A DNA stretch of 64,000 nucleotides. Source: a candidate division WOR-3 bacterium. Lineage in GTDB: Bacteria > Hydrothermota > Tepidihabitantia > Tepidihabitantales > Tepidihabitantaceae. The stretch covers positions 65,657 through 129,656 of the forward strand of contig CBFGKH010000001.1 in the NCBI GenBank assembly GCA_965649295.1, given 5' to 3'. Positions 15,834 through 49,300 of the stretch are shown piece by piece. The notes below the pieces were generated by a model. It made no database searches and was not told the DNA's origin. It saw only the letters and a list, made by a program, of their open reading frames with translations. How positions within the stretch are numbered: position 1 is the stretch's first letter; every line of letters starts with the position of its first letter. A program made the translations under genes and the position numbers.

Positions 15834-18800
15834 TTAGTGCTTGAGTATCAGCTTGCGCGTGGCCGTAAAGGTTCCCGACACCATTCTGACATAGTAGATG
15901 CCCTCAGGCAGCATCCGCTCGCGCCAGTCACGGCCATTCCAATCAACCTGGTGGCGACCAGCAGGCAACGGCCCCGAGACCAACGTCCGAACCGCGTTAC
16001 CAGCCGCGTCGAAGACTGTTATTTCAAGCATCGCCGGCGTCGGCAGCGCAAAGCTGATGGTCACCCTCTGGCTGAACGGCGTTGGCCGAGCACTTTCGAG
16101 TGCAAGGCGACCAGGCAATCCTGCCGGCCGGTCAGCCAAACCCTGCGGCGGCAGAACTGTGACCTCGTTGTAGGCAGTGTCGTTGGCCGGGTCGACATCA
16201 CCGACAAGCGCGCTGTAGCAGGTAACCGGCAGCGTACCAACCGGCCCGGCTGTCCAGCGCGGGAATCGAATCGTGTCCTCGGCCCGAGGCTCAAGCCGGT
16301 GGGTCGTGTCGGCGCGGTAGGAAGTGCCAATCAGGAATGTTACCGGCACCCCTTCGCTGAAGCTCGTGTAGTTGCGCAGCACGGCAACCGGCGTCACCTG
16401 TTGGCCCGAGTCAATTCGACCGGTTGGCGCGATGATGGCCGTGATGCCAACGTCGTGGATCACGCGCTGGACTGTCACCTGCGCCCGGGCAGTGTCGTTG
16501 GCTGGGTTGGCGTCGCCCAGTAGCCGGGTGAAGCAAGTTATCGGATGGGTGCCAACCGGACTGGCAACCCACTGCCGGAAGGTGACAATGGCTGAGTCGT
16601 TGCCAGCGACCGCTACTGCTGTGTCAGCAATGTAGTAGGGCCCGATGATGAATCGCACCGGCACAACCTCAGGTTGCTGGGTGTAGTTGCGGACAACTGC
16701 CCGCGGCTGGATTACGGCACCGGAGTCAATAGTACCCACCGGCTGCAGAACACGGCTAACACCAACATCATGCGGCGCCGGCCGAACCATGCACTCAGCA
16801 TAGGCAGTGTCGTTGCGCGGGTCGGCGTCGCCGTCAATGCTGACCCAGGCCGTGACGTACATCAACCCCACGCTATCGGCGGTCCAATCGGGCAAGGCAA
16901 CAACCGAATCCCGCCCCGGGGCCAGCCTGACTTCTACTGCCTCATCGTAGAGTAGCACGTCCCGCGACTGCGTCTTCTCTTCCAGACCTTTTCCGGTCTT
17001 CTCTGCCCAGGCCTCGATTATCATACGCAGCACAAACGGCTCGCTGGTGTTGCCGTAGTTCGTTACCTGAACCAGTGGCGTGACGGTTGCTCCGGAATCA
17101 ATGTCGCCAACCGGTGCCTCAATCTGCCTTGCGGCAACATCGAGATAGCGAATGATAACGGTCTGCAGCAGAGTATCGTTAGCTGGGTTGGCATCGCCTT
17201 CGAGCCTTATCCAGGCAGTGGCCAGCAGCACTTGCGGGTCACGGGCAAACCAGTTAGTGAAAGTTGCGACCGCCGAGTCGCCGGGTTGAATCACACCCGG
17301 GTCAGCCACGTCGCTGTAGCCATCGCTGATGGTCAGAAAGACTCGCGGCTGCGAGGCAACCGAGCCGTAGTTGCGCAATACAATCTGCGGCTGAATCCGG
17401 TCGCCGGGGTTGACGATGCTCTCTGGCGCAATGAACCTGGTGACGCCGACATCAATTCCGGTCTGCCGGGCATAGACGGTGGCAGTGGCCCGGTCATTGG
17501 CCGGCACCAGGTCACCGCTCAGCATTGTCGAGCATGAAACCGCATACTGACCGATGCCAGGCGGTGTCCAGGGCGTGGCCGAGATGAGGAGGCTCTCGCC
17601 CGGCGCCAGCGTAATGTTGTTGACCGTGACGTTGTAGCCAGCGCCAATTCGGAAGCGGGCAGCAAAGACCTGGGTTGGTGAGCCGAAGTTACGCACCCAG
17701 GCCTGCGGAATGATGACCGTGTCCACCGGCACCGTGTCGCGCGGCGCAACAATTCGCAGGCAGCCGACATCACGATAGCTGACAATCACCGAAGTCTCTT
17801 TGATGTTGTTGACTGGGTCAGGGTCGCCGGTCGTGACCACACTACAACGCGCCACCAGCGTGCCGAACTCAGCAGCAGTCCAGCGCGGGAAGGCAACATG
17901 GGCTGTCTCGCCAGCGCGGAGCAGCCCGAGGCTCGTGCTTTCACGGTAGAGCGTGCCAATGGTAAAGAAGACCCGATAGAAGGCTGAGTCGGTCCCGATA
18001 TTGGCAACCCGGCAGCGCGGCGTCGCAGTGTCGCCAAGATTGAACGACCCGCGCGGCGCGTAGATGGTGTCGGCCCGAAGATTGCGGTCCACATAGCTGA
18101 GCCGTCCCAGCACCAGGCTGGTCCAGCCACCACTGCGGTCAGCCTGGCCGGCAAAGTAGACAGTATTGGTATCAAGCGCAGCGACCGCTGCTCCCAGCCC
18201 ACCCAGGCGATCGGGCGAATCGTAACGCACTGCCCAGAGCGTGTCCTTGTTGCTGCCGACCGGGTCGGTCTCGGTGTAACAGAGCGTCACGAGCACATCA
18301 CCGACCGTACCGGCAACATAAACCCGCCCGCCCTGATAGGCGACCTTGTAGCCATAGGCGTCATCTTCGCCATACACCGCACCAGCCGGACCCCAGCGAC
18401 TGACGAGTGTACTGGAGAAACGATTCGTGCAGATGATGTCGTTATCGTAGCTGAGCATCCCTGTCACATAAACATTGGGCGGATTGGCATTGTCCAGAGC
18501 GATGCTCGAAGCGTAGTCGTCGCCGTCATAGCCGCCAATGTTCAGGCTGCGCCAGTTGAGCAATGTGCCGGCGGAATTGAACCGGGCGACTGCATAGTTG
18601 TAGCCCTCGCTGATAATGCCGTCATCGTTGTAGTCAAACCCGCAGATGTAGATGTCGCCAGATGGAGCCAAGGCCAGGTCAAATGGCACATCAGCGTCGT
18701 GGATAATAGTGTTGGGATTGCGGTAGGTGCGACGCCAGAGCGTGTCACCGCTGGGCCGCAGTTTCATCGTCCACCATTCGAGGTCGAAGAATCGGTGCAG

Positions 18801-19520
18801 TCCGAAGCCGGTAACGACGACGTTCGAGTCCAGGCCGACCGCAATGGCGGTCGCGCAGTTGTCAAACTCAGCGTAGTCCTGGAAGAACCAGGGATGGACG
18901 TCGCGCTGCCTCAGCTTGCTCTCGCGGGCCAGCGTGTCGAGGACGTAGCGCCGGGTCCAGATGGTGTCGCCAGTTGCGCAACTAATCTTGAGAATGGTGT
19001 AGGCGGAAAGGTTGCGGGTTGAGTCAAACGCAGTACCGGCAATATAGGCAACACCGCCCGGCCCCAGTGCAATGTCAAAGGCCGCGTCATCATAAGGCCA
19101 GAGCGTCTTCTTGGCCCAGACCTGGTTGCCGATAGTGTCATATTTCACCCAGGAAATGTCGGCTCCGCGTGGCAGCAGGTTGTAGGTAACGCCAGCAACA
19201 TAGACATTCCCCTCACTATCAACTGCCAGCGCATGGGCCATGTCGTCCTGACTGTAAGTGTTACCGCCATAGGACTGCGACCAGCGTAGCTGGCCGTCGA
19301 GAGTGTAGCAGGCGGTGAGCATGTTCGTCACAGTCGGCCACTGCGGCGCTTCGCCCGAACCACAGATGTAGATACGGTTGCGGCCGGCATCAACATACAT
19401 GTCGGCCGTCATGTTGAACTGGTTTTGACTCTGACCGTCATAGAGCCGAGTCCAGAGCGTATCAATGGCACCGGCCAAGGCCAGGGCCGGTAACAGAACT
19501 ACCAGGCGGAGAAATCTCAT
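15834..19520 (-). CDS. Secreted T9SS cargo protein: N-terminal SBBP-type beta-propeller, about 8 CARDB-like domains, C-terminal type-A T9SS sorting domain
   Basis: Signal peptide MRFLRLVVLLPALALAG. Repeated xxVYVAG/YIAGT/VVTGFG blades. Repeated ~110-aa units (APxGxIDSG..V.P...V.NYG.....V.F.IG). The C-terminus ...ITVFDAAGNAVRTLVSG...HQVDWNGRD...GIYYVRMVSGTFTATRKLILKH is typical of a Por_Secre_tail domain. Confidence 0.8.
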   Translation of the reverse strand: MRFLRLVVLLPALALAGAIDTLWTRLYDGQSQNQFNMTADMYVDAGRNRIYICGSGEAPQWPTVTNMLTACYTLDGQLRWSQSYGGNTYSQDDMAHALAVDSEGNVYVAGVTYNLLPRGADISWVKYDTIGNQVWAKKTLWPYDDAAFDIALGPGGVAYIAGTAFDSTRNLSAYTILKISCATGDTIWTRRYVLDTLARESKLRQRDVHPWFFQDYAEFDNCATAIAVGLDSNVVVTGFGLHRFFDLEWWTMKLRPSGDTLWRRTYRNPNTIIHDADVPFDLALAPSGDIYICGFDYNDDGIISEGYNYAVARFNSAGTLLNWRSLNIGGYDGDDYASSIALDNANPPNVYVTGMLSYDNDIICTNRFSSTLVSRWGPAGAVYGEDDAYGYKVAYQGGRVYVAGTVGDVLVTLCYTETDPVGSNKDTLWAVRYDSPDRLGGLGAAVAALDTNTVYFAGQADRSGGWTSLVLGRLSYVDRNLRADTIYAPRGSFNLGDTATPRCRVANIGTDSAFYRVFFTIGTLYRESTSLGLLRAGETAHVAFPRWTAAEFGTLVARCSVVTTGDPDPVNNIKETSVIVSYRDVGCLRIVAPRDTVPVDTVIIPQAWVRNFGSPTQVFAARFRIGAGYNVTVNNITLAPGESLLISATPWTPPGIGQYAVSCSTMLSGDLVPANDRATATVYARQTGIDVGVTRFIAPESIVNPGDRIQPQIVLRNYGSVASQPRVFLTISDGYSDVADPGVIQPGDSAVATFTNWFARDPQVLLATAWIRLEGDANPANDTLLQTVIIRYLDVAARQIEAPVGDIDSGATVTPLVQVTNYGNTSEPFVLRMIIEAWAEKTGKGLEEKTQSRDVLLYDEAVEVRLAPGRDSVVALPDWTADSVGLMYVTAWVSIDGDADPRNDTAYAECMVRPAPHDVGVSRVLQPVGTIDSGAVIQPRAVVRNYTQQPEVVPVRFIIGPYYIADTAVAVAGNDSAIVTFRQWVASPVGTHPITCFTRLLGDANPANDTARAQVTVQRVIHDVGITAIIAPTGRIDSGQQVTPVAVLRNYTSFSEGVPVTFLIGTSYRADTTHRLEPRAEDTIRFPRWTAGPVGTLPVTCYSALVGDVDPANDTAYNEVTVLPPQGLADRPAGLPGRLALESARPTPFSQRVTISFALPTPAMLEITVFDAAGNAVRTLVSGPLPAGRHQVDWNGRDWRERMLPEGIYYVRMVSGTFTATRKLILKH

Positions 19521-25754: not shown

Positions 25755-26480
25755 ATGCCCTTGCCGCCCCAGTCTGAAACCACTCCAGTGCTCCCCGACC
25801 GAACCGACGCCCGGTTCTTCCCGTTTGTCGGCACTGGATTCTGGAAGTGGGTTCCTTCAACCTGGGTCAGGGGCGGAACCACGGTCGTAACCGAACAAGG
25901 CGAGTTCTGGCGCTTGCTCACCGGCAGCCACGACGGTTGGTGGGCCGAACCGGTCAAACCGACTGATGTCGGCGACGAACGTCATCGCGCGCGCATCAAC
26001 GCTGCAATCATCGCCTTCGAGGCCGAAGCGCTTGACGCCGCGGCCCGGCCTAGACTCGAGGCATTACGTGAAGAGCTGATCCGGCTCTGCAACCCCCACA
26101 TCAAGGACCGACCAGAGCCAGCCGCAATGACCGACGCTTGGTGGGCCAAAGGCTGGATTGCTGGCCTCGCCTTTGGCATCTTCATCATCTCTCTTGCCAA
26201 TGCGGTACGAACCCTGGCCAAGGTTGATCCCGAACCACGCCGCGAGGCCTATCGGCTCCTTTCGATAATGTACGCCCTGGCCGCGCTGGTCATTTTTCTC
26301 GTGGTTTTCATCCCCTACTTGTACATCCGCTATCCGTACAAGATGGGCCGGTTCGCTGCCGTCTTCGGCCGTCGGTTTGGCAATGTCGTCGGCATCATCG
26401 GCCTGTCGCTCCTCGGTCTGATTGGAGTCATCATCGGTTGGCTCATCATCATGTTCGGATCGGCTTCAGCCGGCTCCTAG
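25755..26480 (+). CDS. Hypothetical membrane protein (3 C-terminal TM helices, no recognisable domain)
   Basis: An ORF with the typical compositional codon bias, divergent from rsmD. The start is uncertain. I recognised no family. Confidence 0.4.
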   Translation: MPLPPQSETTPVLPDRTDARFFPFVGTGFWKWVPSTWVRGGTTVVTEQGEFWRLLTGSHDGWWAEPVKPTDVGDERHRARINAAIIAFEAEALDAAARPRLEALREELIRLCNPHIKDRPEPAAMTDAWWAKGWIAGLAFGIFIISLANAVRTLAKVDPEPRREAYRLLSIMYALAALVIFLVVFIPYLYIRYPYKMGRFAAVFGRRFGNVVGIIGLSLLGLIGVIIGWLIIMFGSASAGS

Positions 26481-26535: not shown

Positions 26536-26967
26536 TCAGTGTAGCGGTGCCGACAGCAATTCAGGCAGATTCAGCGGTCCAAGCTGACGGATGCGCTCGG
26601 TAAAGCTAGTGACGGCATCGGCAAACCGCTGGCCTTCGGATGCCGACACCCATTGCAGTTCCAGTCGCTCCTTCTCAATGCCGAGTCCTTCAAGCAGACT
26701 CTGCAACAGGATGATCCGCTTCTGGGCCTTGTAGTTGCCAGAAACATAGTGACAGTCGCCCGGATGACAACCACCGACAAAAACACCGTCTGCGCCATCA
26801 CGGAAGGCCCGCAGAATGAATTCCGGTTCAATACGGCCCGAACACATCACCCGAATGAGACGCAGGTTGGCAGGATACTGCAGCCGTGATGTGCCGGCCA
26901 GATCCGCGCCGGCATAGCAGCACCAGTTACAGGCGAATCCGACAATCTTCGGGTTGAACTCTGCCAC
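26536..26967 (-). CDS. mvhD: MvhD/FlpD-type hydrogenase iron-sulfur (2Fe-2S) subunit
   Basis: KIVGFACNWCCYAGADLAG...VMCSGRIEP...GVFVGGCHPGDCHY, the MvhD/FlpD cysteine pattern. Starts 1 bp after the hdrA stop. Confidence 0.75.
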   Translation of the reverse strand: MAEFNPKIVGFACNWCCYAGADLAGTSRLQYPANLRLIRVMCSGRIEPEFILRAFRDGADGVFVGGCHPGDCHYVSGNYKAQKRIILLQSLLEGLGIEKERLELQWVSASEGQRFADAVTSFTERIRQLGPLNLPELLSAPLH

Positions 26968-28983
26968 CTAGACCTCCTTGCCAACTGGCTCTACGCTGTC
27001 ATTGCCCGACCAAGCACCCAACAGCGCGTCAAGCTGCGCATCAATCTGCCGGTTCGTGAAATGCCGCATGGTAATTGCACCAGAGGGACAGGCCGATGGG
27101 CAAACCCCACAGCCTTTACAGAGGATCTGGTTCACTGTCATCACTCCCTGCTGCGCATCATAGCTCAAGGCTGAATATGGACAGAGCGCTTCGCAAATGT
27201 GACAGGCCGAGCAGGCCTCAGCGCTAATCTCTGCCACGACCGGTTCAATCTTCACCTTGCCCTTATTGAGTAGGGCAATTGCCGACGAGGCCGCCGCCTT
27301 GGCCTGCGCCACGGTATCAGGAATATCCTTGGGCCCCTGACAGCAGCCGGCCAAAAACACTCCCTCAATGTTCGTATCCACCGGCCGAAGCTTCGGATGC
27401 GCCTCCATGAAGAAGCGGTCAGACGAGAGCGAGAGCTTCAGCGTCTGGCCGAGTTCACGAAATCCCTCACTTGGCACTAGACCAACTCCTAACACCACCA
27501 TGTCGGTCTCGTGCTCGATGACCTTGCCGAGCAGGGTATCGTCCACCCGCACGACCAACCTTCCTTTGCGCCGGAAGATCTCGGATGGCTTGCCACGACG
27601 AAATACCACACCTTCATCACGCACCCGGTCATAGAACTCTTCAAACCCCTTGCCGTAGGCACGGATATCCATGTAGTAGCTCGTAATCTTGCAGTCCGGC
27701 AGTTTGTCGTGCAGCAGATGAGCCTGCTTGATGATGAACATACAGCAGACCCGCGAGCAGTACTCATTGCCCACCGCCTTGTCGCGCGAACCAACGCAGT
27801 GGATGAAAACAACATCTTTGGGCTCGTCGCCATCGGACAGCTTGACGATGCGGCCGCTGGTCGGGCCGCCGGCTGACGACAGTCGCTCAAACTCAAGACT
27901 GGTCAGTACGTCCGCATACTTGCCATAGCCAAACTCCGGCAGGGTCGTCGCATCAAACACATCCATGCCGGTTGCGAGCACGATGGCGCCAACATCAATT
28001 ACCCGATCCACCGGCTGTTGATCGAAGTCAATGCAGTGTTTCTCGCAAGCCTGAATACACTTCCCACAGGCCAGCGGCAGCGAACCAAGACACTGTTTCT
28101 CATTGCGACAGAATGCCGCCGGTACCGCCTGAGCAAACGGCTGGTAGATGGCTGTCCTGGTCGAAAGACCGAGATTGAACTCATCCGGAAACCGCTGCGG
28201 ACAAACCTTAGCACAGTCACCACAGGCAGTGCACTGGCTGGCATCCACAAACCGCGGCTGCTGATGGACAGTCACCTTGAAGTTACCAACAAATCCGGCA
28301 ACATTCTTGACGGTCGCCAGCGTTAGTAGCTCAATATTTGGATGGCGCGCCGCGTCAACCATCTTTGGCGTCAGGATGCAGGCCGAGCAGTCAAGCGTCG
28401 GGAACGTCTTGTCGAGCTGGGCCATATGGCCGCCAATTGATGGCTCCTTCTCGACGAGATAGACTTTGTACCCAGCCTCGGCGATATCAAGCGCCGCCTG
28501 AATCCCGGCCACACCGCCGCCAACAACCATCACCGCTTTGGTCACATCGGCGAACCGGTCTTCGAGCGGCTCCAGCAGCGCGGCCCGGGCCACTGCCGCC
28601 CGCACCAAGTCCTTTGCCTTGGCCGTGCCTTCGGCTTTGTCCGGGTGGACCCACGAGCACTGCTCGCGAATGTTGCACATCTCGAACAGGTAAGGATTGA
28701 CGCCGACGCCAAAGACAGCACCCCGAAATGTCGGCTCGTGCATTCGCGGCGAGCAGGCTGCTACCACTACCCGTGTCAACCCTAACTCCTTGATGTCCTT
28801 CTTGATTAGGTCCTGGCCCGGGTCCGAACACATGTAGAGGTAGTTGCGGGCAACTGTCACATTCGGCAGCGTCTTGGCATACGCGACAACCGCTTCAACA
28901 TCAACGGTGGCAGCGATGTTAACACCGCAATGACAGACATAGACACCGATTCTGGCCGGCGACTGCTTGGACTTGGCTATCAC
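26968..28983 (-). CDS. hdrA: HdrA-like FAD- and FeS-containing heterodisulfide-reductase subunit A homologue
   Basis: FAD motif VVGGGVAGIQAALDIAEAGYKVYLVEKEPSIGGHM, several CxxCxxCxxxCP ferredoxin motifs and an N-terminal Cys cluster, in 671 aa. Overlaps the etfA stop by 4 nt. Confidence 0.8.
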   Translation of the reverse strand: MIAKSKQSPARIGVYVCHCGVNIAATVDVEAVVAYAKTLPNVTVARNYLYMCSDPGQDLIKKDIKELGLTRVVVAACSPRMHEPTFRGAVFGVGVNPYLFEMCNIREQCSWVHPDKAEGTAKAKDLVRAAVARAALLEPLEDRFADVTKAVMVVGGGVAGIQAALDIAEAGYKVYLVEKEPSIGGHMAQLDKTFPTLDCSACILTPKMVDAARHPNIELLTLATVKNVAGFVGNFKVTVHQQPRFVDASQCTACGDCAKVCPQRFPDEFNLGLSTRTAIYQPFAQAVPAAFCRNEKQCLGSLPLACGKCIQACEKHCIDFDQQPVDRVIDVGAIVLATGMDVFDATTLPEFGYGKYADVLTSLEFERLSSAGGPTSGRIVKLSDGDEPKDVVFIHCVGSRDKAVGNEYCSRVCCMFIIKQAHLLHDKLPDCKITSYYMDIRAYGKGFEEFYDRVRDEGVVFRRGKPSEIFRRKGRLVVRVDDTLLGKVIEHETDMVVLGVGLVPSEGFRELGQTLKLSLSSDRFFMEAHPKLRPVDTNIEGVFLAGCCQGPKDIPDTVAQAKAAASSAIALLNKGKVKIEPVVAEISAEACSACHICEALCPYSALSYDAQQGVMTVNQILCKGCGVCPSACPSGAITMRHFTNRQIDAQLDALLGAWSGNDSVEPVGKEV

Positions 28984-29957
28984 GACTTCATCTCCGCCAG
29001 TTTGGCCCGCAAAGCAGGCACCACCTTGTGTAGATCATCAACGATTCCGTAGTGGGCGACGGCGAAGATCGGGGCGTTCGGGTCCTTGTTCACGGCAATG
29101 ATTGTATCAGCACCCTTCATGCCAGCTATGTGCTGAAAGGCACCGGATATCCCCAGCGCGATATAGACCTTGGGCTTGATTGTCTTACCTGAAGAGCCCA
29201 CTTGCACCTCCTTCGGCAACCAGCCAGCGTCAACCACCGGTCGTGACGCTGCCAGAACCGCACCAATCTCAGCCGCGAACTCTTTGACCAGTGGCAGGTT
29301 CTTTTCTTCCTTGATACCGCGACCGACCCCAACCACGACTGCCGCCTTGGTGATGTCAATCCCGGTTGTCGGAACCTCTTCGAGACTGATGAACTTCGTT
29401 CTGGCGCCAGCCAAGACGTCACCAGCGTCCCAACGCTCGATCGTTCCTGCCAGACTTGCCGGTTCCGGCTTGAACTGCGACTGGCGCACCATCACCACCG
29501 CCGGCCTGGTTTCAAGCATCCAGTCCGCAACAATCTTACCCGAGTACATACCCCGACTAACCTGAATGCCATTGCCACTCTTTGCCAGACCGATGGCATC
29601 TGAGACCAGGCCGGCGTCTAGCGCAACCGCTAGACTAGGTCCGAGATCAGTTCCGAATGCCGAGTGGGCAATCATCAGCACATCCGGCTTTCGCTCCGTA
29701 CAGAGTCTCACCAGCGCCTGTTGGTATGCCTCATAGTTGAAATCCCGGAACGCCGGGCTAGCAATCGATATGACTCGATGGGCCGCAGCTGCAATTTGAG
29801 CCGCCATCGTTTCTGGTGACTCCGCCAGTAGCACGGCCTCGACACTCGCCCCCCACTCAGCTCCAAGCTTACGGGCCGCAGCCAGCATCTCAAACGTCAC
29901 ATCCCGCACCACTCCTTGCCGGTGCTCAACCAGAACAAGAATGCCGCCCATCACCAA
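28980..29957 (-). CDS. etfA: Electron transfer flavoprotein alpha subunit (EtfA/FixB type, no N-terminal ferredoxin domain)
   Basis: LVLVEH... N-terminus and the C-terminal FAD-binding region IAVNKDPNAPIF..ADYGIVGDL. Confidence 0.85.
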   Translation of the reverse strand: MVMGGILVLVEHRQGVVRDVTFEMLAAARKLGAEWGASVEAVLLAESPETMAAQIAAAAHRVISIASPAFRDFNYEAYQQALVRLCTERKPDVLMIAHSAFGTDLGPSLAVALDAGLVSDAIGLAKSGNGIQVSRGMYSGKIVADWMLETRPAVVMVRQSQFKPEPASLAGTIERWDAGDVLAGARTKFISLEEVPTTGIDITKAAVVVGVGRGIKEEKNLPLVKEFAAEIGAVLAASRPVVDAGWLPKEVQVGSSGKTIKPKVYIALGISGAFQHIAGMKGADTIIAVNKDPNAPIFAVAHYGIVDDLHKVVPALRAKLAEMKS

Positions 29958-29997
29958 CTCCTCTCACGTTGCTCGGCATCCATCGTTCGCTCCGCCA

Positions 29998-30756
29998 TCA
30001 TACTGCCCCCTTCTCCTTCAACAGGAGGGCCAGCTTCTGCGCCTTCTCGTCAACTGTGCCCTCAATCATCTCAGCCGCTGCTGTTACCGGCGGAACATAG
30101 AGCTTGATCAGTTGCGTCTGCGCCACAACCGCTGCCGGTTTCTTGATGTCAATCGTCTTGGCACCAGCCCGCTTGATTCCCATAATCGAAGCGTAGCGAG
30201 GTGAATTGCCGCCGGTCTGAATTGTCACTACTGCCGGCAGGCCAAGCTCCTTAACCTCCAGCATCCCACCTTCGAGTTCACGTTTGACCGTCAGCTTGTC
30301 TGTCGCAAACTCCAACCTTGTCACATACGCAGCGTGTGGCCAACCCAGCAGCTCAGCCAGCGCCGGGCCAACCTGCGAGTTACCATCATCGGTAGCAATG
30401 GCACCGCAGAATATCAGGTCAAACTGGTGCTCTCGAAAGAACTCAGCCAGGACCCGGGCCAGCGCTATGCCATCAACATGACCCAGATCGGCATCGTCGA
30501 TTCTAACTGCTGCACCCGCTCCCTTGGCCAGACCCATCCTGAGCACTTCCTCACTTGCCTTTGGTCCAACTGAGACGAGGGTAACATTGGCACCGAGCTT
30601 TTCCTTAGCCAAGAGTGCTTCTTCTAGCGCGTAGTTGTCGGCCTCGTTGATGGTAAACGCCAGCTTGTCCTTGACTATGTCTTTGCCGGTTGGGTCAACC
30701 CGAACCTCGGCCTCGGCCGTGTCCGGCACCCGCTTGAGACAGACCGCAATCTCCAC
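29998..30756 (-). CDS. etfB: Electron transfer flavoprotein beta subunit (EtfB/FixA type)
   Basis: VVVEIAVCLKRVPDT N-terminus. Start assigned to the GTG at 30756, which sits 5 nt after a GAGGAGG Shine-Dalgarno (read on the minus strand); the longest ORF (30795) adds 13 residues with no RBS. Confidence 0.8.
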   Translation of the reverse strand: MEIAVCLKRVPDTAEAEVRVDPTGKDIVKDKLAFTINEADNYALEEALLAKEKLGANVTLVSVGPKASEEVLRMGLAKGAGAAVRIDDADLGHVDGIALARVLAEFFREHQFDLIFCGAIATDDGNSQVGPALAELLGWPHAAYVTRLEFATDKLTVKRELEGGMLEVKELGLPAVVTIQTGGNSPRYASIMGIKRAGAKTIDIKKPAAVVAQTQLIKLYVPPVTAAAEMIEGTVDEKAQKLALLLKEKGAV

Positions 30757-31193
30757 TACTACCTCCTCACTCGCCGCAGCCGTACCCCAAAGCACGGCTC
30801 TTAGCGCTGGTAATCAGGTAAATCAGCAGGTATTGGTTACTAGACATTAGCAGAACTTGCTCTTTCGGGACGCATATCGTAGCGCAAAACCCCTGCCGGT
30901 CAAGCAAGATGGTTCGGCTATCATCAGCCAGACTGTAACTGAGTCCAGCCAACCCATCAATCTGGATCAACCAACTCCTTTCCCAGGGCTCGACTTCGAA
31001 CCTGAGCCGGCACCTTCCTATCGAGTGGCGTGGTCGCTGGTTGCCGCACCGACAGCAACCATGCCTACCCCGCCGACGCTTAGCAAGTGATGCTTTATCT
31101 GAGAGTACGCAGGGCTTGCGCCCGCTGGGCGCCACCACTAGACTATTCAGTAGTCGAGATACCCTAGCCAGACTGCCACAGGAGGCATTCTTG

Positions 31194-34100
31194 ATGAAAT
31201 TGGCCCGCTTGCTTCTTCTCCCCGCATTCGCTCTGGCGGGAACCTTGATTTACACCGCAGAAGTTAATCCGCAAGAGCTTCTGTTCTCGCGCCATGGTGA
31301 CTACGACTTGGTCCAGCTTGCCAATGGCGTGTTTGTTCCTAGGCCAGGTTACCCCAGCCTGCCCGAACTGCCGCTCACGCTCGTTGTTCCAGCCGGCGCA
31401 CTTGTCACCAAGGTCTCTGCCGAACCACTGGCAATCATTGAACTGGGTAACTACCGTATCATGCCGTCCCAACACGCCCACCCTATATCCAAACCTCCGA
31501 CTCACTACTTCACTCCGCCCATCCCTGCAATCTACAGGACAGACAGACCCTTTCCGGGTACCTACTGTCGTGATTTCACAACCGGCCTTGCCTCCGGATT
31601 CCAGTTGGTGAGCATTAGCCTCTGCCCGCTGCAGTACCAGCCGGCATCAGGCCGTCTTAGTCTCGCCAACAAGTTGCTGGTAACCATCAGCTATGCGGAC
31701 AATGTCTCAAGAACAACTGTCCTAACCCCTAGTCAGCGTGACAGGGCACTGATGTCGCTAATACCGCTTGTGGCCAATTCCCGTGACCTGAACCGTTTCG
31801 CACCCCAGACACTCGAATGTGATCTTCCCGAGATCAACTATCTCATCATCACCAACAACGCACTGGCTCCCCACTGGCAGGAGTTTGCCGACTATCGTTC
31901 AGCCCGTGGTCTGCGCGCCGAAATCAGAACCGTTGAGTGGGCGCAGCGCAGCTACCCTGGCCGTGACGCTCAGGAGTGCGTCCGCAACCTCATCATCGAC
32001 TACTATCAGCACCGGGGTCTCTCCTACGTCCTGCTGGCTGGCGACAATGCCCAAGTTCGCTGCCGCAAGATTCGCCTGAACGTTGAAGACGAGCAGGGTG
32101 ACATCCCCACCGATCTCTACTACGGTGGGCTCGACTACTCCTGGGATTCGAACAACAACAATATCTTCGGCGAGATGGCCGATTCAATTGACCTCTATGC
32201 CGATGTTCTGGTCGGCCGTGCCTCCGCCGATAACGTCCGTCAGATTGAGAACTTCATCCGCAAAGTTGCGATCTACGAAAACAGCCCAGCACCTGACTAT
32301 CATCGCCGCAGCCTCCTTCCTTCTGGCTGGCTTTGGCGCAGCATCGGCTATCATGGCAGTTTTCTCAACGACTCGATTGCCGATTTGACACCAGCTCCCT
32401 GGGTTGACCGCAAGCTCGTCAATCCGCGTAACTCGGCGGTTGTTGCCGAATCACTCGACCACGGCTTTGTCATTTTCGATCCTGCCGGGCACGGCAACGC
32501 CAGCGGCGTTTACGACGAGGACGGTACGCCCATCTATCTCGCCAGCAATGCCGCTTCTCAGCGCAACTATCGCCGTTACGCGATTATGACCTCACTTGCC
32601 TGCGACCCCGGCGACTTCGAGGCTGAGGACTGCTGCGCTGAAGCTGCGCTCAACTGTGACACTGCCGGCTGTATCGGCGTAATGATGAACTCCCGCTACG
32701 GCTGGGGCACACCACCAAGCATGGGACCATCTGAGAAGCTATGTGTCCGTTTCTGGGATTACTACCTCGTACGCAATCACACTGTCATTGGTGCGGCCCA
32801 CAACCGCTCCCGCGAAGTCTATGCTGGCCAGGCCCGTACTAGTTCACTCTGGCGCTGGTGTGTCACTGAGTTCAATCTTTTCGGTGACCCAGCGCTCGAC
32901 ATCTGGACCCAGGCGCCAACACCACTCACGATTGAAGCACCGGTCTCGGTTCCAACCGGCGCTCAGACAGTCGTGGCCACAGTACGTGCCAACGGCTCGC
33001 CACTCGCTGACGCCATCGTGACCGCTTGGAAAGCAAACGAGGTATTTGCTACCGCCAACACCAATGCCGCTGGTCAGGCCACCCTCCCAGTTCATGCCGT
33101 CACCACCGGCAGCATTCTCGTCACAGCCCGAAAACACGACTACCTTGCTGCCCAAGCCAGTGTTACCGTCACCCCAGGAGCGCCTGAACCGCTGATTCGC
33201 TACTCGTGCAGCAGTATTGATGATACCGGTGCCCAGAATCCAAACGGAATTCTCGAGCCCGATGAGACCGCTCGCCTGACTCTCACAATCCGCAATGCCG
33301 GCACTGGTGCGGCCACGAATACCCGCATCGTGCTGCGACCACTTACCGCCGGTGTCACCGCACCAGAATCAGTTGCCTGGTATGGCACTGTTCTAGCTGG
33401 TGACTCGGCGGCTGCCTCCAACCTGCTCATCACATGTGGTGGCAATGTTCTTCCCGGCGCGATAGTTCAACTGCTGGCGCTGGTCTCAAGCGATCAGAGA
33501 TACGACGAGTTTATCTTCGGTATCGAAATTGGTTACCCCGGCCGGGTCGCTGCTGATATTGACACTGGCGACTGCGCGCTGACGGTAACTGCCCGCGGAG
33601 CAATCGGCTTCGACCGCACCGGTACTATTACCGGTCTCGGATTCCGCTATCCCAAGAACGACACTTCTACTCTAAACACCGCCAGCTTCGCCATTAGCAA
33701 TGGGCCGAACTACGTTGTTGACCGCTTCTACAGCCAAAACGACCGGCTGGACACTGACTGGACACTTGCCGACTCCGTCCGGCAGCGCTATCCGCTTTGG
33801 AGCGCCGATGAGATGCTGACTGCCGCATTCAACGACGCCGGCCATGTTGACCCACGGTCAGTCACTGTTGGCCAGCGAGCCCTGGCAGCCCGTGCCGTCC
33901 CTGGTGCAGTCGTCCTCGTCTACGATATCACCAACCAGAATGGCACCACCCTTGAAAACGCCTATGCCGGCATCCTTGCCGACTTTGACGTCGATGCCCG
34001 CGACCGTTTTCACGACGATGCCTGGGTGCGACATGACCTTAGCGCAGTAATGATGCGCAATATCCTGCGCCCTGACCGCTACTGCGGCATCAAACTCCTG

Positions 34101-34652
34101 ACACCGGTCGCTCCGTTCCACGGCACCTGTCTCGACAACTCAGTTTACATCACTTCCGACTCAGGCATGAGCGAAAGCATGAAACACCGCGCCCTGACCG
34201 CTGAGATTGGCCTGCCTCAGTCGAATCGGACTTACAACTGGTCGGTTGCCATCGCGACTGGGCCACTGACCATTCCCCCCGGCTCGACCCAACGCGTTGC
34301 CTTCGCTTTTGTCGGGGCGGCCGGCTCGACTGCCTTCGAACAAACATGTGCTGCAATTCAGGACTGGTATGATGCCAATGTGGGGATCAAGCAGACACCT
34401 ACCCTTAGCCATCGCCAATCTGAAATCACGGTTCTACCCAACCCAACCCGTGGCACTCTACGGATCAACAGCTCGCCCCATATGCACCTGTGCGCTCTGA
34501 CGCTCTATGATTGCTCCGGTAATCTTGTCCGCAAGCTGGACACGAGAAGCCTAATGATCGATCTTTCCGACTTACCAACTGGTGCCTACGTCCTCAAGCT
34601 CGTGACTGACACTGGTCAGACAAGCACTGTCCGAATAGCCGTTTTGCGCTAG
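31194..34652 (+). CDS. Peptidase C25 (gingipain-like cysteine protease) with C-terminal type-A T9SS sorting domain
   Basis: GGAGG RBS 9 nt upstream of the ATG at 31194, followed by signal peptide MKLARLLLLPAFALAG. C25 core: YLIITNN...YVLLAGD...DLYYGGLD...ADVLVGR, catalytic His in DPAGHGNASG and Cys in MTSLACDPGDF. The C-terminus ...LTLYDCSGNLVRKL...GAYVLKLVTDTGQTSTVRIAVLR is a Por_Secre_tail-like CTD. Confidence 0.8.
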   Translation: MKLARLLLLPAFALAGTLIYTAEVNPQELLFSRHGDYDLVQLANGVFVPRPGYPSLPELPLTLVVPAGALVTKVSAEPLAIIELGNYRIMPSQHAHPISKPPTHYFTPPIPAIYRTDRPFPGTYCRDFTTGLASGFQLVSISLCPLQYQPASGRLSLANKLLVTISYADNVSRTTVLTPSQRDRALMSLIPLVANSRDLNRFAPQTLECDLPEINYLIITNNALAPHWQEFADYRSARGLRAEIRTVEWAQRSYPGRDAQECVRNLIIDYYQHRGLSYVLLAGDNAQVRCRKIRLNVEDEQGDIPTDLYYGGLDYSWDSNNNNIFGEMADSIDLYADVLVGRASADNVRQIENFIRKVAIYENSPAPDYHRRSLLPSGWLWRSIGYHGSFLNDSIADLTPAPWVDRKLVNPRNSAVVAESLDHGFVIFDPAGHGNASGVYDEDGTPIYLASNAASQRNYRRYAIMTSLACDPGDFEAEDCCAEAALNCDTAGCIGVMMNSRYGWGTPPSMGPSEKLCVRFWDYYLVRNHTVIGAAHNRSREVYAGQARTSSLWRWCVTEFNLFGDPALDIWTQAPTPLTIEAPVSVPTGAQTVVATVRANGSPLADAIVTAWKANEVFATANTNAAGQATLPVHAVTTGSILVTARKHDYLAAQASVTVTPGAPEPLIRYSCSSIDDTGAQNPNGILEPDETARLTLTIRNAGTGAATNTRIVLRPLTAGVTAPESVAWYGTVLAGDSAAASNLLITCGGNVLPGAIVQLLALVSSDQRYDEFIFGIEIGYPGRVAADIDTGDCALTVTARGAIGFDRTGTITGLGFRYPKNDTSTLNTASFAISNGPNYVVDRFYSQNDRLDTDWTLADSVRQRYPLWSADEMLTAAFNDAGHVDPRSVTVGQRALAARAVPGAVVLVYDITNQNGTTLENAYAGILADFDVDARDRFHDDAWVRHDLSAVMMRNILRPDRYCGIKLLTPVAPFHGTCLDNSVYITSDSGMSESMKHRALTAEIGLPQSNRTYNWSVAIATGPLTIPPGSTQRVAFAFVGAAGSTAFEQTCAAIQDWYDANVGIKQTPTLSHRQSEITVLPNPTRGTLRINSSPHMHLCALTLYDCSGNLVRKLDTRSLMIDLSDLPTGAYVLKLVTDTGQTSTVRIAVLR

Positions 34653-34712: not shown

Positions 34713-34755
34713 TTGCGAGTGGTGCCGATAGCTGTGCCAGAATTGCGGAGACAAA

Positions 34756-34783
34756 TTGACAGAAGTGGGTTCACTTCTATAAT
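34756..34783 (+). promoter_or_regulatory. Consensus sigma70 promoter TTGACA-N16-TATAAT whose spacer is a perfect palindrome GAAGTGggttCACTTC (operator-like)
   Basis: Exact -35 and -10 consensus hexamers were read from the sequence, about 55 bp upstream of tRNA-Leu. The 6-4-6 inverted repeat exactly fills the spacer. Confidence 0.5.
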
Positions 34784-34842
34784 GACTTGTCTAGCAAGCT
34801 GGTGGCAGGTAGTTATCAGCCGTCAGTATGCTGGCAAACGAT

Positions 34843-34924
34843 GCCGAGGTGGTGGAATTGGCAGACACGCTTGGTTGAGGGCCAAGTGCCTAACAGCATG
34901 CAGGTTCAAATCCTGTCCTCGGCA
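34843..34924 (+). tRNA. tRNA-Leu (anticodon GAG), class II with long variable arm
   Basis: Acceptor stem GCCGAGG/CCTCGGC with discriminator A; D-loop GGAATTGGCAGA; anticodon stem-loop CTTGG-TTGAGGG-CCAAG; T-arm GGTTCAAATCC. Very close to the E. coli tRNA-Leu scaffold. CCA is not encoded. Confidence 0.8.
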
Positions 34925-34935
34925 TGCCTCTCCTG

Positions 34936-36111
34936 ATGACCAATTCCCGTGTCATTGTAATAGTCCTCGACGGTGTCGGTTGTGGGTTTGCGCTCGACGC
35001 TGCTCGCTTCGGCGACGAAGGCTCAAACACACTTCAGAACCTAAGTCTCGCAACCAAGCTCAGCCTCCGGAACTTGACCCGACTCGGTCTTGGCAACATA
35101 CTGCCGCTGCGTGGCGTGCCGTTCAACGAACGCCATACCGCAGCAGTAGGAATGATGGCCGCACAATCCTGCGGCAAGGATTCAACCTGCGGCCACTGGG
35201 AGCTGGCCGGAGTCATCGTGACCGAACCATTCCCTGTGTTCCCGAACGGTTTTCCGACCGAGCTACTGCGGCAATTCGAAAAACAGATTGGTCGCCAGAC
35301 GATCGGCAACTGCGCTGCATCTGGGACCGAGATAATCAACCAGCTCGGTGATGAGCACGTCCGTACCGGCTCACCGATCGTTTACACCTCGGCCGACAGT
35401 GTTTTCCAAATTGCCTGTCACGAGGAAGTAGTGCCACGATCGCTACTCTACGATTACTGCGAAACCGCCCGCCGGCTGCTGGACGGCCCCAACCGCGTGG
35501 CTCGCGTAATCGCTCGACCTTTTGTAGGCTCCTCTGGAAACTACCGTCGAACTGATGGTCGCCGTGATTTCTCCTGTGCAGCGCCCAAACCAACGCTCCT
35601 TGACAATGCTAAGAGCGCCGGTCTACCAGTCATCGCCATTGGCAAGGTTGACGACCTTTTTGCCGGCCGCGGATTCACTCAATCCTATCACTCCGTTCGG
35701 AACGACGAATGCATACAACTCATTAGTAAAGCGATGAGACAGACAGATAACGGTCTCATCTTTGCCAACCTCGTCCAGTTCGATATGGACTGGGGCCATC
35801 GCAACGACGTCGCAGGATTCGCTGCCGGTCTCACCAGGTTCGATAGACAACTACCCGCCATCCTTAGCCTGCTCCGCCAAGGAGACCTGCTTTTCATAAC
35901 GGCTGACCACGGCAACGACCCAACCACCCCATCAACCGATCACTCGCGCGAGTGCGTGCCGCTCCTTGCACTTGGTCCCGGGCTGCGCGGTGGGCTGAAC
36001 CTCGGCACAAGACCGACATTCGCTGACCTAGGCCAGACCGCTGCCGAACATCTCGGCATCTCGCCAACCCCGGATGGTACAAGTTTCCATGGCGAGCTAC
36101 TTCCCGAGTAA
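34936..36111 (+). CDS. deoB: Phosphopentomutase (DeoB)
   Basis: VIVIVLDGVGCG N-terminus (metal site) and the ITADHGNDPT motif. Start set at the ATG at 34936; the longest ORF begins at 34924, inside the tRNA 3' end. Confidence 0.85.
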   Translation: MTNSRVIVIVLDGVGCGFALDAARFGDEGSNTLQNLSLATKLSLRNLTRLGLGNILPLRGVPFNERHTAAVGMMAAQSCGKDSTCGHWELAGVIVTEPFPVFPNGFPTELLRQFEKQIGRQTIGNCAASGTEIINQLGDEHVRTGSPIVYTSADSVFQIACHEEVVPRSLLYDYCETARRLLDGPNRVARVIARPFVGSSGNYRRTDGRRDFSCAAPKPTLLDNAKSAGLPVIAIGKVDDLFAGRGFTQSYHSVRNDECIQLISKAMRQTDNGLIFANLVQFDMDWGHRNDVAGFAAGLTRFDRQLPAILSLLRQGDLLFITADHGNDPTTPSTDHSRECVPLLALGPGLRGGLNLGTRPTFADLGQTAAEHLGISPTPDGTSFHGELLPE

Positions 36112-46393: not shown

Positions 46394-49300
46394 TTACTCG
46401 ATTGCCAGCTTCTGAGTCGAACTGAACCGGTCGGCACTGAACCGAACCAGATAGACACCGGCTGACAGGCCGCCCAGGTCCAGTCTCGCTGTCCCGGTAC
46501 GGCCGACAGCCAGCGACTGCTTGACCAACAACCGGCCCGCAACATCATGGACAGCAACGTTCAGGACCCCAGCGCTAGGCAGTGAATACTGAACAATCGC
46601 AGCCTGACGGTTCAGGGGACTCGGCCCAATCCGAGCAAACAGAACCCCAGCCGGTGCTAGCTTTCCAGCGACACCACCACCCTTCGGAACAGAAGCCATC
46701 AACGACGATACTGGTCGGACATAGCGCCAGAACTCAGTGGTCTTGTTGCCTTTTAGGGCGAAGAACACAGAGTCAGCCCAGGCAACAATGTCACCACCAG
46801 ACTTGACCTTCTTCTTACGTCCGCCAGTTCCAACTTGTGGCATCGTCTCTAGTGGCGTCCAGCTATCTCCATTAGCGTGATAGCGCCAGAACTCCTGGGT
46901 ATTGGCTCCCTTCAAGGCGTAGATGCCGCCTGGGCCCCAGGCACCGCAGCTGCCGTCTCCGGGTTTGGAGCGCCGACCGGTTATCGGGCTAGTAAGCGGC
47001 ATACCCCGCAATGCAGTTACGCTCCAGCCAAGGGTAACGTCGTAAGCGTAAAGTTCGCCAAACTTCGCCCGGTGGGCGTAGATTGTCCGGTCGTTGTCAT
47101 AGACAAGGAACGACCCCTTGTCCCACTTCGCGTCGGTTCCGCCCGGTGCCGACGGTAGCACCTGCCACTGACCAGAAACCGTGTTGTAACGGTAGAACTC
47201 GTTGCGACCACCCTTGAGTAGATAGACGTAACTCGAATCACCCTGAGCAACATAGACCATGTCGGTGCCGCCCTTGATACGTTGGCGGCGTGGTCCGGCC
47301 GGCACTGTCTCCAGCGGGGTCCATGTGTTACTCCCGATATCGAACTTGTAGAACTCCAGGGTATTGTTTCCCTTCACGGCATAGATTGTCCCGTTGCCGT
47401 CGCTGCAACCGACGCCACCCTTGCCGGGAAGCTTACTTCCGGTTGGAACCGGCATGCCCCGCAGGTCATGCCAGGTGTCAGCCAACGGATCATATGAGTA
47501 GAAGTCCCGGGTCTTGTTGCCCTTGGCCGCGTAGATGATACCATTGTCAATTGCGAGCCAGCCGCCTTCTTTCACCGGCCGTACCGAAGGCAAGAGCCGC
47601 ACTTCTCGCGCCCGACTCCAGCCTGTCGGCCATGGCTGCTGCTGGGGCGGTGCGTAGATCCGGAAGGATTCGGTTAGCGTGTCGTTCTCGCGATTGCCGT
47701 CGCCAACCATAAACGTCGAACAGCGCACAGCATAGTTACCGACCGGATGCGGCCCAGGCCAGGGAGCAAACTGCAGCTGACGCGGTGCCCCCTGCGGCAG
47801 GTTGATGACCGTAGCCGTGTCAGTATAGACAAGCCCGGCACCTTCGTCGCGAATGCCCACCCAGACACGGAACGTGGCAGGCAGTTGGCCGTAGTTCTGG
47901 ACCGCTACTGTCGGCACAATCGTCGCGGTCGAGTCAACGCTGTCAGTCGGAGCAACGATTGCCACAACACCAACGTCGAGCACTGACGGCGGAATTACCC
48001 GTGTCGAGCCATAGACGGTGTCGTTCTGTCGATGGGTGTCGCCTGGCAGCGTCGTGAATGCCCACAACTGATGGATACCCTGATTGCGCGCGGTCCAAGC
48101 TGAATCGAATCGCACCTGCAGACTTTCACCGGCATTGATGCTCACCTGTCTGGTCAGAACGAAGTTCATTGGGTTGTCCTGAATCACGAATGTCAGGTTA
48201 CAGACTTCATTCGTAGTCCCATAGTTTCGCACCTTGACCTCTGGTCGCACCTGGGTGAACTCGCGAATTGACTCGCGCGGCGCGACAATCTCGAATGCGC
48301 CGACGTCAATGAAGTCAGGCGGCCGCACTGTGAAGGTCCCTCGTGCCGTATCATTGCCCGGATGCGGGTCCTCTGGCATTATCGTGAAGGCAGCACAGCT
48401 GTAGTCGCCAGCTGGGCTAGCAGTGAAGCGCCTTGTGAAGTTCACTACCAGACTGTCGCCCGGCGGAACGACAACGCCGGTGTGGGTCGTATCATAGACG
48501 ATACTACCACCCGAGTTGCGAATCTGGAACCGGACGTTGCAAGTTCCACCCAACGTCCCGTAGTCCCGTATCCGTACTGCTGGCTGCACCTGAGTGTCCT
48601 GAACAATAACGCCGGTCGGTGCAAGAACCTGCGTAGCACCGACATCGTAGAGGTTAACACGGGTCGAGCCCCAGGCCGTGTCGTTACCCGGCACCTGGTC
48701 GCCGACGAGTTCGGTCCAGCAAGCAGTTGTGAACGAACCGGAATCGGTCGTCCAGCTCGCGAAAGTCACATTGGTCTCACTTCGCGCCCCAAGCGTTGCC
48801 ACCACGGTGCTATCCCGATACACTGTCGCTGCACCACGTCGGATGAGAAACTTCACCATCAAATTTGAGGTCTGCTGGTTGCCGTGGTTGCGAACTGTTG
48901 CGGTCGGCGTCACAACTACGCCATAACCAACATTGCTGCCTGGCTGAAGGATGGCCGTTGCACCGGCATCGGTGTATCGGACATAGAACGGCGTACCGCT
49001 CAACGTGTCGTTGGTCGGGTCAAGATCGAGCTGGAAGTTACGGACTGAACACCGCGGCGTGTAGGTTGTGTTCAGCGGCCCGGGCTGAGCAATCCAGGTT
49101 GGGAAAACAAGCAACGATTCACGGCCCCGCAAAATCACGATCGAATCAATGGTATGACTGTACACAAGCTGCCCGTTCTGGTCACGGAGAGTGAAAGTCA
49201 CGCGCGCCGTATCACGAGCATAGGTACTGAAAGACCGCAGAATTGCCCTCGGGGTAATGGCTGTGCCCGAATCATAGACTGCCAAGACTGGCTCCACGAT

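Follow-up and report, generated by a model that had tools for sequence, protein, structure and literature searches.

An operon coupling electron-transferring flavoprotein genes to hdrA and mvhD in a candidate division WOR-3 bacterium, the possible core of a soluble HdrA-type electron-bifurcating complex

Flavin-based electron bifurcation is known from four flavoprotein families, one per characterised complex, and 12 bifurcating enzymes are listed as biochemically established (PMC6085437). In the heterodisulfide reductase complex of methanogens, as summarised from its structure, HdrC carries electrons from HdrA to HdrB and the [2Fe-2S] cluster of MvhD lies within electron-transfer distance of an HdrA cluster (PMC5861303); the MvhD-binding Mvh or Fdh modules may be encoded away from the hdr genes (PMC6085437, Table 1 footnote). 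In the bifurcating electron-transferring flavoproteins (ETFs), EtfB carries a recognition motif for the bifurcating FAD (b-FAD), DGDTAQVGP, reported to be absent from non-bifurcating Etfs, and the Ldh-EtfAB complex contained about 2.9 FAD, but 1.7 once six motif residues had been substituted, as loss of b-FAD would explain (PMC9232219). In class II benzoyl-CoA reductase the flavin of the HdrA-like BamE bifurcates, a non-bifurcating ETF (BamOP, midpoint potential +16 mV) is the high-potential acceptor, to which the HdrBC-like BamD passes the electron, and BamF, an MvhD homologue, serves as adaptor for the input module (bioRxiv 10.64898/2026.04.10.717634, a preprint of April 2026). Here we describe, in a 64-kb stretch of a candidate division WOR-3 genome (the window, in whose numbering all coordinates are given), an operon of etfB, etfA, hdrA and mvhD that hard-wires an ETF to HdrA, a composition found in none of the 12 listed enzymes. 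With roughly even confidence, we propose that its products make up the core of a soluble complex of the HdrA type, bifurcating or confurcating electrons at a flavin, with the ETF in the place of the heterodisulfide branch.

The four genes form a single co-directional operon on the minus strand, at 26536-30756, preceded by a divergent intergenic region:

29998-30756, minus strand: etfB, small (beta) ETF subunit, about 252 amino acids (aa) from the GTG at 30756; PF01012, E 7e-42 (Pfam)
28980-29951, minus strand: etfA, large (alpha) ETF subunit, about 323 aa; PF01012, E 2e-35, and PF00766, E 3e-34 (Pfam)
26968-28983, minus strand: hdrA, full-length heterodisulfide-reductase subunit A, 671 aa
26536-26967, minus strand: mvhD, [2Fe-2S] adaptor subunit, 143 aa; PF02662, E 8e-58 (Pfam)
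30757-31193, no strand: divergent intergenic region before etfB; a weak sigma-70-like site lies in it

All families and positions given in a preliminary description of this DNA are borne out by Pfam and by reading of the open reading frames (ORFs), and so is the tight coupling that it had pointed out. The etfA stop and the GTG start of hdrA overlap by 4 nt (GTGA), and the GTG of mvhD comes straight after the TAG of hdrA, with AAGGAGG just upstream, both junctions being read from the sequence; a Shine-Dalgarno-like purine run precedes each of the four starts. The start of etfB is most likely the GTG at 30756, the end coordinate already given in the preliminary description, with GAGGAGG 5 nt before it; the mechanically called ORF is longer, reaching 30795, and homologue alignments to this longer form begin only at residue 11-14. 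For etfA the start is most likely the ATG at 29951, which has AGGAG upstream. The four genes are a real, translationally coupled operon. A sigma-70-like site (TTGACC-16-TACGAT, 9 of 12 matches) lies upstream of etfB at 30903-30876 on the minus strand, and the intergenic region may hold the operon promoter; promoter- and terminator-like sites near the operon do not rise above background, the sigma-70-like ones not being enriched relative to shuffled sequences, and neither this region nor the rest of the operon's vicinity gave an Rfam family match.

The conservation of this gene order was followed from two directions, by an HdrA-seeded scan of one genome per species (80 loci, tblastn with the four window proteins) and by an EtfA-seeded scan of metagenomes (80 loci, 23 of them close, with at least 59% identity, and 57 distant, with 46-54% identity); neighbourhoods were typed with a crude ORF caller and BLAST labels, and the Pfam check covered representative loci. 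The closest HdrA homologues (74-98% identity) carry the label candidate division WOR-3. The order etfB-etfA-hdrA(-mvhD), on one strand, is found at 25 of the 80 HdrA-seeded genome loci and spans six or more phyla: WOR-3, Gemmatimonadota, Bacillota (many loci, in Syntrophomonadaceae and Dethiobacteria), Actinomycetota (Geothermincolia and relatives), Eisenbacteria and a Desulfovibrio metagenome-assembled genome, with permuted Etf-Hdr arrangements in Chloroflexota and Desulfobacterota. On the metagenome side, hdrA lies directly downstream of etfA at 21 of the 23 close loci, the contigs of the remaining two being too short, and mvhD is also visible at 14; within the fetched flanks (up to 7-10 kb) none of the 23 has an hdrD-like, flx or acyl-CoA dehydrogenase gene. 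Among the distant EtfA relatives the neighbours are hdrA (29/57), an hdrD-like gene (26/57), either of the two (39/57) and an acyl-CoA dehydrogenase gene (39/57). Since hdrA or hdrD neighbours recur in both scan directions, this Etf subfamily is dedicated to Hdr contexts, together with acyl-CoA dehydrogenase contexts. About 19 contigs hold a complete four-gene copy, with flanking genes that differ between copies, and in the WOR-3 locus L081 and the unrelated L083, whose HdrA is 66% identical to that of the window, the operon stands alone, the gene that follows mvhD being convergent. As a unit the four-gene form is stable in itself, and the Etf-Hdr adjacency is beyond chance.

Conservation of the order in other anaerobes, which the preliminary description had suggested looking for, is therefore strong at both the genome and the close metagenome loci. 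The same description had held that its pairing would fall if the adjacency were not conserved and if dedicated partners existed elsewhere: the adjacency is strongly conserved, whereas dedicated partners, namely HdrD-like, Flx and acyl-CoA dehydrogenase proteins, do appear in the operons of distant relatives. These data also bear on a simple co-transcription, in which the ETF would serve acyl-CoA dehydrogenases and HdrA-MvhD an unrelated process, the two sharing a promoter and no electrons. Complex formation is something that we infer, and HdrA relatives at 62-66% identity are found without Etf (for example with mvhGA at locus L086); nevertheless, adjacency kept across phyla from both search directions, overlapping start and stop codons and an Etf subfamily rarely seen without Hdr genes where the flank suffices make mere co-transcription very improbable.

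HdrA and MvhD appear fully equipped for their usual roles. HdrA comprises an FAD domain, an N-terminal domain, an inserted ferredoxin domain and a C-terminal ferredoxin domain, with Pfam matches to FAD/pyridine-nucleotide-disulfide oxidoreductase and several 4Fe-4S ferredoxin domains. It aligns end to end and colinearly with the solved chains 5odc_A and 8rvu_a (812-828 bits), residues 10-654 matching 4-649 of 5odc_A, the Methanothermococcus HdrA, at 812 bits and about 60% identity. The FAD fingerprint GGGVAGI is conserved, and no cysteine is missing from the 27 columns kept in at least 85% of 67 HdrAs, among them 5odc_A, which puts the ligands of the six [4Fe-4S] clusters in place. In MvhD, PF02662 is complete (residues 1-123 of 123), and the alignment with 5odc_D gives 207 bits over residues 1-138 with the cysteines aligned. 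The hdrA and mvhD products share HdrA2 as their best NCBIfam model, with 922 and 191 bits respectively, both below its cut-off of 1100. A 5-residue insertion in the inserted ferredoxin domain of HdrA, GSLPL, was considered as a signature of ETF association and rejected, as it occurs in bacterial HdrAs with and without Etf.

The nature of the ETF determines where bifurcation would take place. Both subunits have their folds, with PF01012 in each and PF00766 complete (residues 1-81 of 81) in EtfA, which has a complete alpha-FAD domain and no N-terminal ferredoxin domain. At the b-FAD site the window EtfB reads DDGNSQVGP, identical to DGDTAQVGP at 5 of 9 positions; WOR-3 orthologues read DDGSSQVGP, DDGASQVGV or DTQDSQVGP, and EtfBs of the related eight-gene operons discussed below read, among others, DDGSMAVGV, DYGQAVTGV and DDWHMSTGV. 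The DGDT core is present in 0 of 32 HdrA-linked EtfBs, among which the site varies freely. The best solved match of EtfB is the AMP-binding, non-bifurcating Methylophilus ETF (1o94_C, 157 bits, versus 118 bits for the Acidaminococcus chain 4kpu_B). The scores of EtfA against bifurcating and non-bifurcating solved chains, 176-192 bits (LctC 192, CarE 185, Methylophilus 176), do not separate the two types, and no curated NCBIfam Etf model reaches its cut-off. The dehydrogenase recognition loop of EtfB is kept as PRYASI, aligning with PRYASL of the Methylophilus ETF and PRYATL of the human ETF; this loop is also conserved in bifurcating EtfBs and hence is not type-specific (PMC9232219). The window EtfAB is very likely a non-bifurcating ETF and, because it would have no b-FAD, without an NADH site.

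This departs from the preliminary description, which had read EtfAB as bifurcating and NADH-oxidising, with HdrA as a second bifurcating flavoprotein, the two making an Nfn-like NADH:ferredoxin or confurcating oxidoreductase, and which had proposed a check of EtfB for bifurcating-type motifs. Slightly higher EtfA scores against the bifurcating structures, the retention in EtfB of VCxKRVPDT and of the QVGP half of the motif, and the precedent of confurcating and bifurcating modules coupled in one assembly (bioRxiv 10.64898/2026.04.10.717634) speak in favour of such an enzyme. The missing DGDT core and the variability of the site in all 32 proteins, the drop in FAD that motif substitution causes in Ldh-EtfAB (PMC9232219) and the AMP-type nearest solved EtfB speak against it, as do the relatives, whose NADH input by separate Flx subunits would be superfluous with an NADH-oxidising Etf. 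We regard an Nfn-like enzyme of two bifurcating flavoproteins as improbable.

The operons of more distant relatives indicate what such a core could be attached to. In Bacillota and Actinomycetota an eight-gene operon encodes an HdrD-like protein, EtfB, EtfA, HdrA, MvhD, two iron-sulfur proteins and an NAD-binding FlxA/AsrB-type flavoprotein (for example L010, 7019-15307; also L007, L015, L016, L018, L023, L033, L044, L119, L120 and L149). Judged from its genes, it amounts to a Flox-Hdr system into which an ETF has been inserted; L013 and L020 have the operon without etfBA, in the form of the Flox/Flx-Hdr system known from sulfate reducers and syntrophs. Its HdrD-like proteins have two CxxCxxCxxxC motifs and two CCG domains and are soluble, with no transmembrane segment. 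Elsewhere etfBA-hdrA lies inside beta-oxidation or branched-chain acyl-CoA operons with genes for acyl-CoA dehydrogenases, a B12 mutase, 3-hydroxyacyl-CoA dehydrogenase and a carboxylase. Eisenbacteria-like contigs (L084, 3841-13321; L085, 3734-13295) have cobO, meaB, an acyl-CoA dehydrogenase gene, hdrD, etfB, etfA and hdrA but no mvhD; next come a B12 acyl-CoA mutase, a second acyl-CoA dehydrogenase and a biotin carboxylase set, a setting of branched-chain acyl-CoA or leucine degradation. The Desulfobacterota type (L034, 11-14932; similar at L012, L037 and some 25 metagenome loci, L122-L166), very common among metagenome matches, has genes for an acyl-CoA ligase, 3-hydroxyacyl-CoA dehydrogenase, acyl-CoA dehydrogenase, HdrD, EtfBA, another acyl-CoA dehydrogenase, a short HdrA (about 440 aa, FAD domain only), a full HdrA, CobO and a B12 mutase. 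The four genes are followed by a butyrate-kinase-like gene, a branched-chain aminotransferase gene and a phosphate butyryltransferase gene at a Gemmatimonadota locus, and by mutase, acyl-CoA dehydrogenase and thiolase genes at L030. Finally, an Anaerolineae locus (L086, 1-15241) has two Hdr sets, one of them hdrD-hdrA-mvhD with mvhG/mvhA hydrogenase genes and a fumarate-reductase-like flavoprotein gene and without Etf, which shows that the same HdrA subfamily also pairs with hydrogenase. This HdrA subfamily is thus a modular hub, in which MvhD takes the mid-potential input from Flx or Mvh and HdrD leads to the high-potential output; as that output, ETF and acyl-CoA dehydrogenases recur.

The usual partners, said in the preliminary description to be missing, are indeed not there: neither HdrB/HdrC nor a fused HdrD-like CCG partner of HdrA is found in the window or in the flanks of WOR-3-type loci, about 20 related contigs having none of these partners. 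A tblastn search with queries from related loci (HdrD-like CCG protein, the three Flx-like subunits of L010 and acyl-CoA dehydrogenases) gave no such gene in the 64-kb window, its sole match being a trivial ferredoxin-motif match within hdrA, and Bcd/CarC/LctD or FixCX genes are not evident in the ORF inventory of the window, no FixCX or LctD-type queries having been run.

The four genes could be part of an enzyme equal to the eight-gene hdrD-etfBA-hdrA-mvhD-flxCBA type, whose HdrD-like protein (fused HdrBC-type, with CCG domains) would be encoded at an unlinked position and bridge HdrA and the ETF, and in which a Flx-like NADH dehydrogenase would bind MvhD. There are 15 or more loci with exactly the eight-gene operon, the soluble HdrD-like proteins of which have the double motif and CCG domains described above, and in benzoyl-CoA reductase it is the HdrBC-like BamD, and not the HdrA-like subunit, on which the ETF docks (bioRxiv 10.64898/2026.04.10.717634). 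However, hdrD-like or flx genes occur at none of the 23 close EtfA-seeded loci, at no WOR-3 genome locus (up to 7-10 kb) and not in the window, and at least two lineages, with no more than about 65% identity between their HdrAs, stably keep the minimal operon. A bridge of this kind seems to us rather unlikely, if still a serious possibility.

The same operons bear on a reversed assignment, with the ETF as donor, entering through MvhD in the place of the hydrogenase, and with HdrA bifurcating to ferredoxin and a high-potential acceptor that would have to be sought elsewhere. MvhD-type proteins do adapt an input module to HdrA (PMC5861303; bioRxiv 10.64898/2026.04.10.717634), and the ETF is the only other redox module in the operon. 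Such an enzyme is nonetheless distinctly improbable: with the ETF at about 0 mV and ferredoxin at about -450 mV the acceptor would have to lie well above +400 mV, which is not obvious in an anaerobe without HdrBC, and the eight-gene relatives place mvhD before the Flx subunits and hdrD beside etfB, a gene order indicating that MvhD serves Flx and HdrD the ETF.

In the complex that we favour, an HdrA-based bifurcating core with the ETF in the heterodisulfide branch's place, the FAD of HdrA would be the only site of bifurcation. Ferredoxin, docking on the inserted ferredoxin domain of HdrA, would be the low-potential partner, and the non-bifurcating EtfAB, with one alpha-FAD and with AMP or nothing in EtfB, the high-potential one, linked by its recognition loop to acyl-CoA dehydrogenases encoded elsewhere. 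The [2Fe-2S] cluster of MvhD would be the plug for a mid-potential two-electron module, also encoded elsewhere, which may be a hydrogenase, a formate dehydrogenase or a Flx-like NADH dehydrogenase. The net reaction would be

2 H2 (or 2 NADH) + Fd(ox) + ETF(ox) <-> Fd(red) + ETF(red)

in which Fd is ferredoxin. In one direction it would drive enoyl-CoA reduction and make reduced ferredoxin, as Bcd-EtfAB does, except that the splitting flavin would belong to HdrA; in the other, ETF reduced by acyl-CoA oxidation would be re-oxidised with the help of reduced ferredoxin, with no quinones or membrane involved. Both the formation of the complex and the direction of its electron flow are presumptive, as is the identity of the module on MvhD. 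The midpoint potential of ferredoxin is about -450 mV and that of ETF is near 0 mV; because an ETF near 0 mV cannot reduce ferredoxin without a second, much more positive acceptor, the four-subunit enzyme is, on thermodynamic grounds, incomplete without the mid-potential module. By analogy, benzoyl-CoA reductase with its ETF provides the experimental precedent for an ETF in the role of HdrA's high-potential partner.

Several points weigh against this arrangement. Both in the benzoyl-CoA reductase precedent and in the eight-gene operons an HdrBC- or HdrD-like CCG protein sits between HdrA and the ETF; because an HdrD-like CCG protein is missing here, either direct docking or an unlinked CCG gene must be assumed, and the binding of ETF to HdrA in this operon is itself a prediction. 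The module that binds MvhD would likewise lie outside the four genes. Moreover, of the b-FAD motif the WOR-3 EtfBs retain the QVGP half, and they have the VPDT N-terminal motif as bifurcating EtfBs do, so that a second FAD is conceivable, if improbable; because of these retained elements our confidence in a non-bifurcating ETF, although high, stops well short of certainty. In the boldest form of the proposal, EtfAB would dock straight on HdrA with no CCG protein between them and, with a hydrogenase or NADH module bound to MvhD, would, as a minimal soluble enzyme, confurcate electrons of reduced ferredoxin and of ETF reduced in acyl-CoA oxidation to H2 or NADH; we put this forward tentatively, as possible but on balance doubtful.

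The rest of the window, inventoried from a crude ORF list over all 64 kb, holds housekeeping genes and large secreted proteins. The upstream neighbour of the operon is a divergent gene whose product is a large secreted protein; downstream, a 241-aa membrane ORF (25755-26480, plus strand) with strongly hydrophobic C-terminal segments runs convergently towards mvhD, and rsmD-coaD-obg-dprA follow after about 1 kb. This ORF has no Pfam match and no counterpart among the related loci, and a 123-aa ORF upstream of etfB (30767-31138) has no family match. Four very large ORFs (1113-1513 aa) with signal-peptide-like N-termini lie at 15834-19520 (minus), 31041-34652 (plus), 46394-50935 (minus) and 54747-58088 (minus). 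The mechanical ORF 34713-35351 contains a tRNA gene (34843-34924, plus strand, Rfam 53 bits), whose end coincides with the listed start of a 395-aa ORF, at 34924; for this reason that listed start is probably wrong.

A few features of the related loci deserve mention in their own right. A LarA-like (lactate racemase family) gene, which the window does not have, lies on the opposite strand near the downstream end of the operon at several WOR-3 loci, directly convergent after mvhD at L003 (5845-7080) and after one intervening gene at L081 (14961-16193), where methylmalonyl-CoA mutase, epimerase and carboxyltransferase genes follow; downstream ORFs of about 411 aa at L103 and L107 are likened to it by size and position only. 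Just upstream of the eight-gene operon, Syntrophomonadaceae-type loci have selB and an AIR-synthase-family (selD-like) gene (L010, 3803-6803; likewise L016, L018 and L023). These genes prompted the idea of selenocysteine in the MvhD of Bacillota operons, which was ruled out, mvhD of L019 and L041 having no in-frame stop. At a Candidatus Edwardsbacteria locus (L168, 3268-10351) etfB-etfA lie 1.8 kb upstream of a gene for a 1116-aa fusion of HdrA with a GltD/NfnB-like NAD(P)-binding domain, with no mvhD and with an NTase/HEPN toxin-antitoxin pair and an acetyltransferase gene in between; the idea that HdrA::GltD-type fusions, of about 1110 aa, are Etf partners in general was discarded, since etfBA is nearby in only 1 of 4 contexts.

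If the four products form a complex, it would connect the acyl-CoA/enoyl-CoA couple (about -10 mV), ferredoxin and H2 or NADH in anaerobes by a soluble route in which the splitting of electrons falls to HdrA and not to Etf. Such a route would bear on how fermenters and syntrophs shed the electrons of acyl-CoA oxidation without quinones, and it would generalise the recent finding of an ETF that serves as high-potential acceptor to an HdrA-like module in class II benzoyl-CoA reductase. Direct docking, if true, would let anaerobes pass the energetically hardest step in the oxidation of fatty acids and amino acids with neither membrane nor quinone, and would be a fifth architecture among flavin-based bifurcating enzymes, uniting two of the four known flavoprotein families. 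The WOR-3 four-gene version is the smallest such set and would be handy for heterologous expression.

The view that this is not a standard described complex stands, given its absence from the published list (PMC6085437) and a full-text literature search that found no paper naming an Etf-HdrA-MvhD complex, the only matches being work on Flox-Hdr, on ETF:menaquinone oxidoreductase (EMO/EtfD/DUF224) and on benzoyl-CoA reductase with its ETF. Compared with MvhAGD-HdrABC of methanogens (PDB 5ODC), HdrA is about 60% identical, colinear and in possession of all cluster cysteines, MvhD is about 65% identical, and the hub architecture is the same, with FAD in HdrA, a ferredoxin site on HdrA and the MvhD [2Fe-2S] adaptor; the window operon differs in having no HdrB/HdrC (no CCG domains) and no MvhAG, ETF genes standing in their place. 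HdrA2B2C2 of Methanosarcina acetivorans has in HdrA2, an HdrA-MvhD fusion, the best NCBIfam model for both products, but hdrA and mvhD are separate genes here, HdrB2C2 is absent and the scores fall below the HdrA2 cut-off. Nor would F420 be expected in WOR-3. FlxABCD-HdrABC (Flox-Hdr) is likewise bacterial, soluble and HdrA-based, and distant operon relatives hold hdrD(BC)-hdrA-mvhD(flxD)-flxC-flxB-flxA with or without inserted etfBA; the window, by tblastn, has no FlxA-type flavoprotein, FlxB/FlxC or HdrBC/HdrD, and Flox-Hdr as published mentions no ETF and proposes a thiol/disulfide carrier such as DsrC as the high-potential acceptor. The bifurcating EtfAB complexes (Bcd-EtfAB, CarCDE, LctBCD, FixABCX) share the EtfA and EtfB folds, and the overall chemistry, from NADH or H2 to ferredoxin and an enoyl-CoA/ETF-level acceptor, could be equivalent; unlike them, the window has an EtfB without the b-FAD motif and no adjacent Bcd, Ldh or FixCX, and its bifurcating flavin would be in HdrA. 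The membrane-bound, HdrD-like EMO makes ETF a known partner of Hdr-type CCG iron-sulfur proteins, and operon relatives put a CCG protein directly upstream of etfB; however, the HdrD-like proteins of the related operons are soluble and paired with HdrA instead of a quinone site, and the window has no CCG protein. Class II benzoyl-CoA reductase (BamBCDEFGHI) comes with an HdrA-like bifurcator, a non-bifurcating ETF (BamOP) as acceptor and the MvhD homologue BamF as adaptor (bioRxiv 10.64898/2026.04.10.717634), yet its ETF is encoded apart and binds BamD transiently, while here etfBA lie inside the operon; its low-potential branch leads to a tungsten enzyme, not to ferredoxin, and the window has no equivalents of BamD/HdrD, BamBC or BamGHI. 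As the window encodes no CCG protein, the analogy rests on HdrA, MvhD and ETF only. Judged by their sequences, the parts are canonical members of the ETF, HdrA and MvhD families; their assembly matches none of MvhAGD-HdrABC, Flox-Hdr, the Bcd/Car/Lct/Fix-type Etf complexes and class II benzoyl-CoA reductase, and is probably a variant of the HdrA hub, one that is widely distributed.

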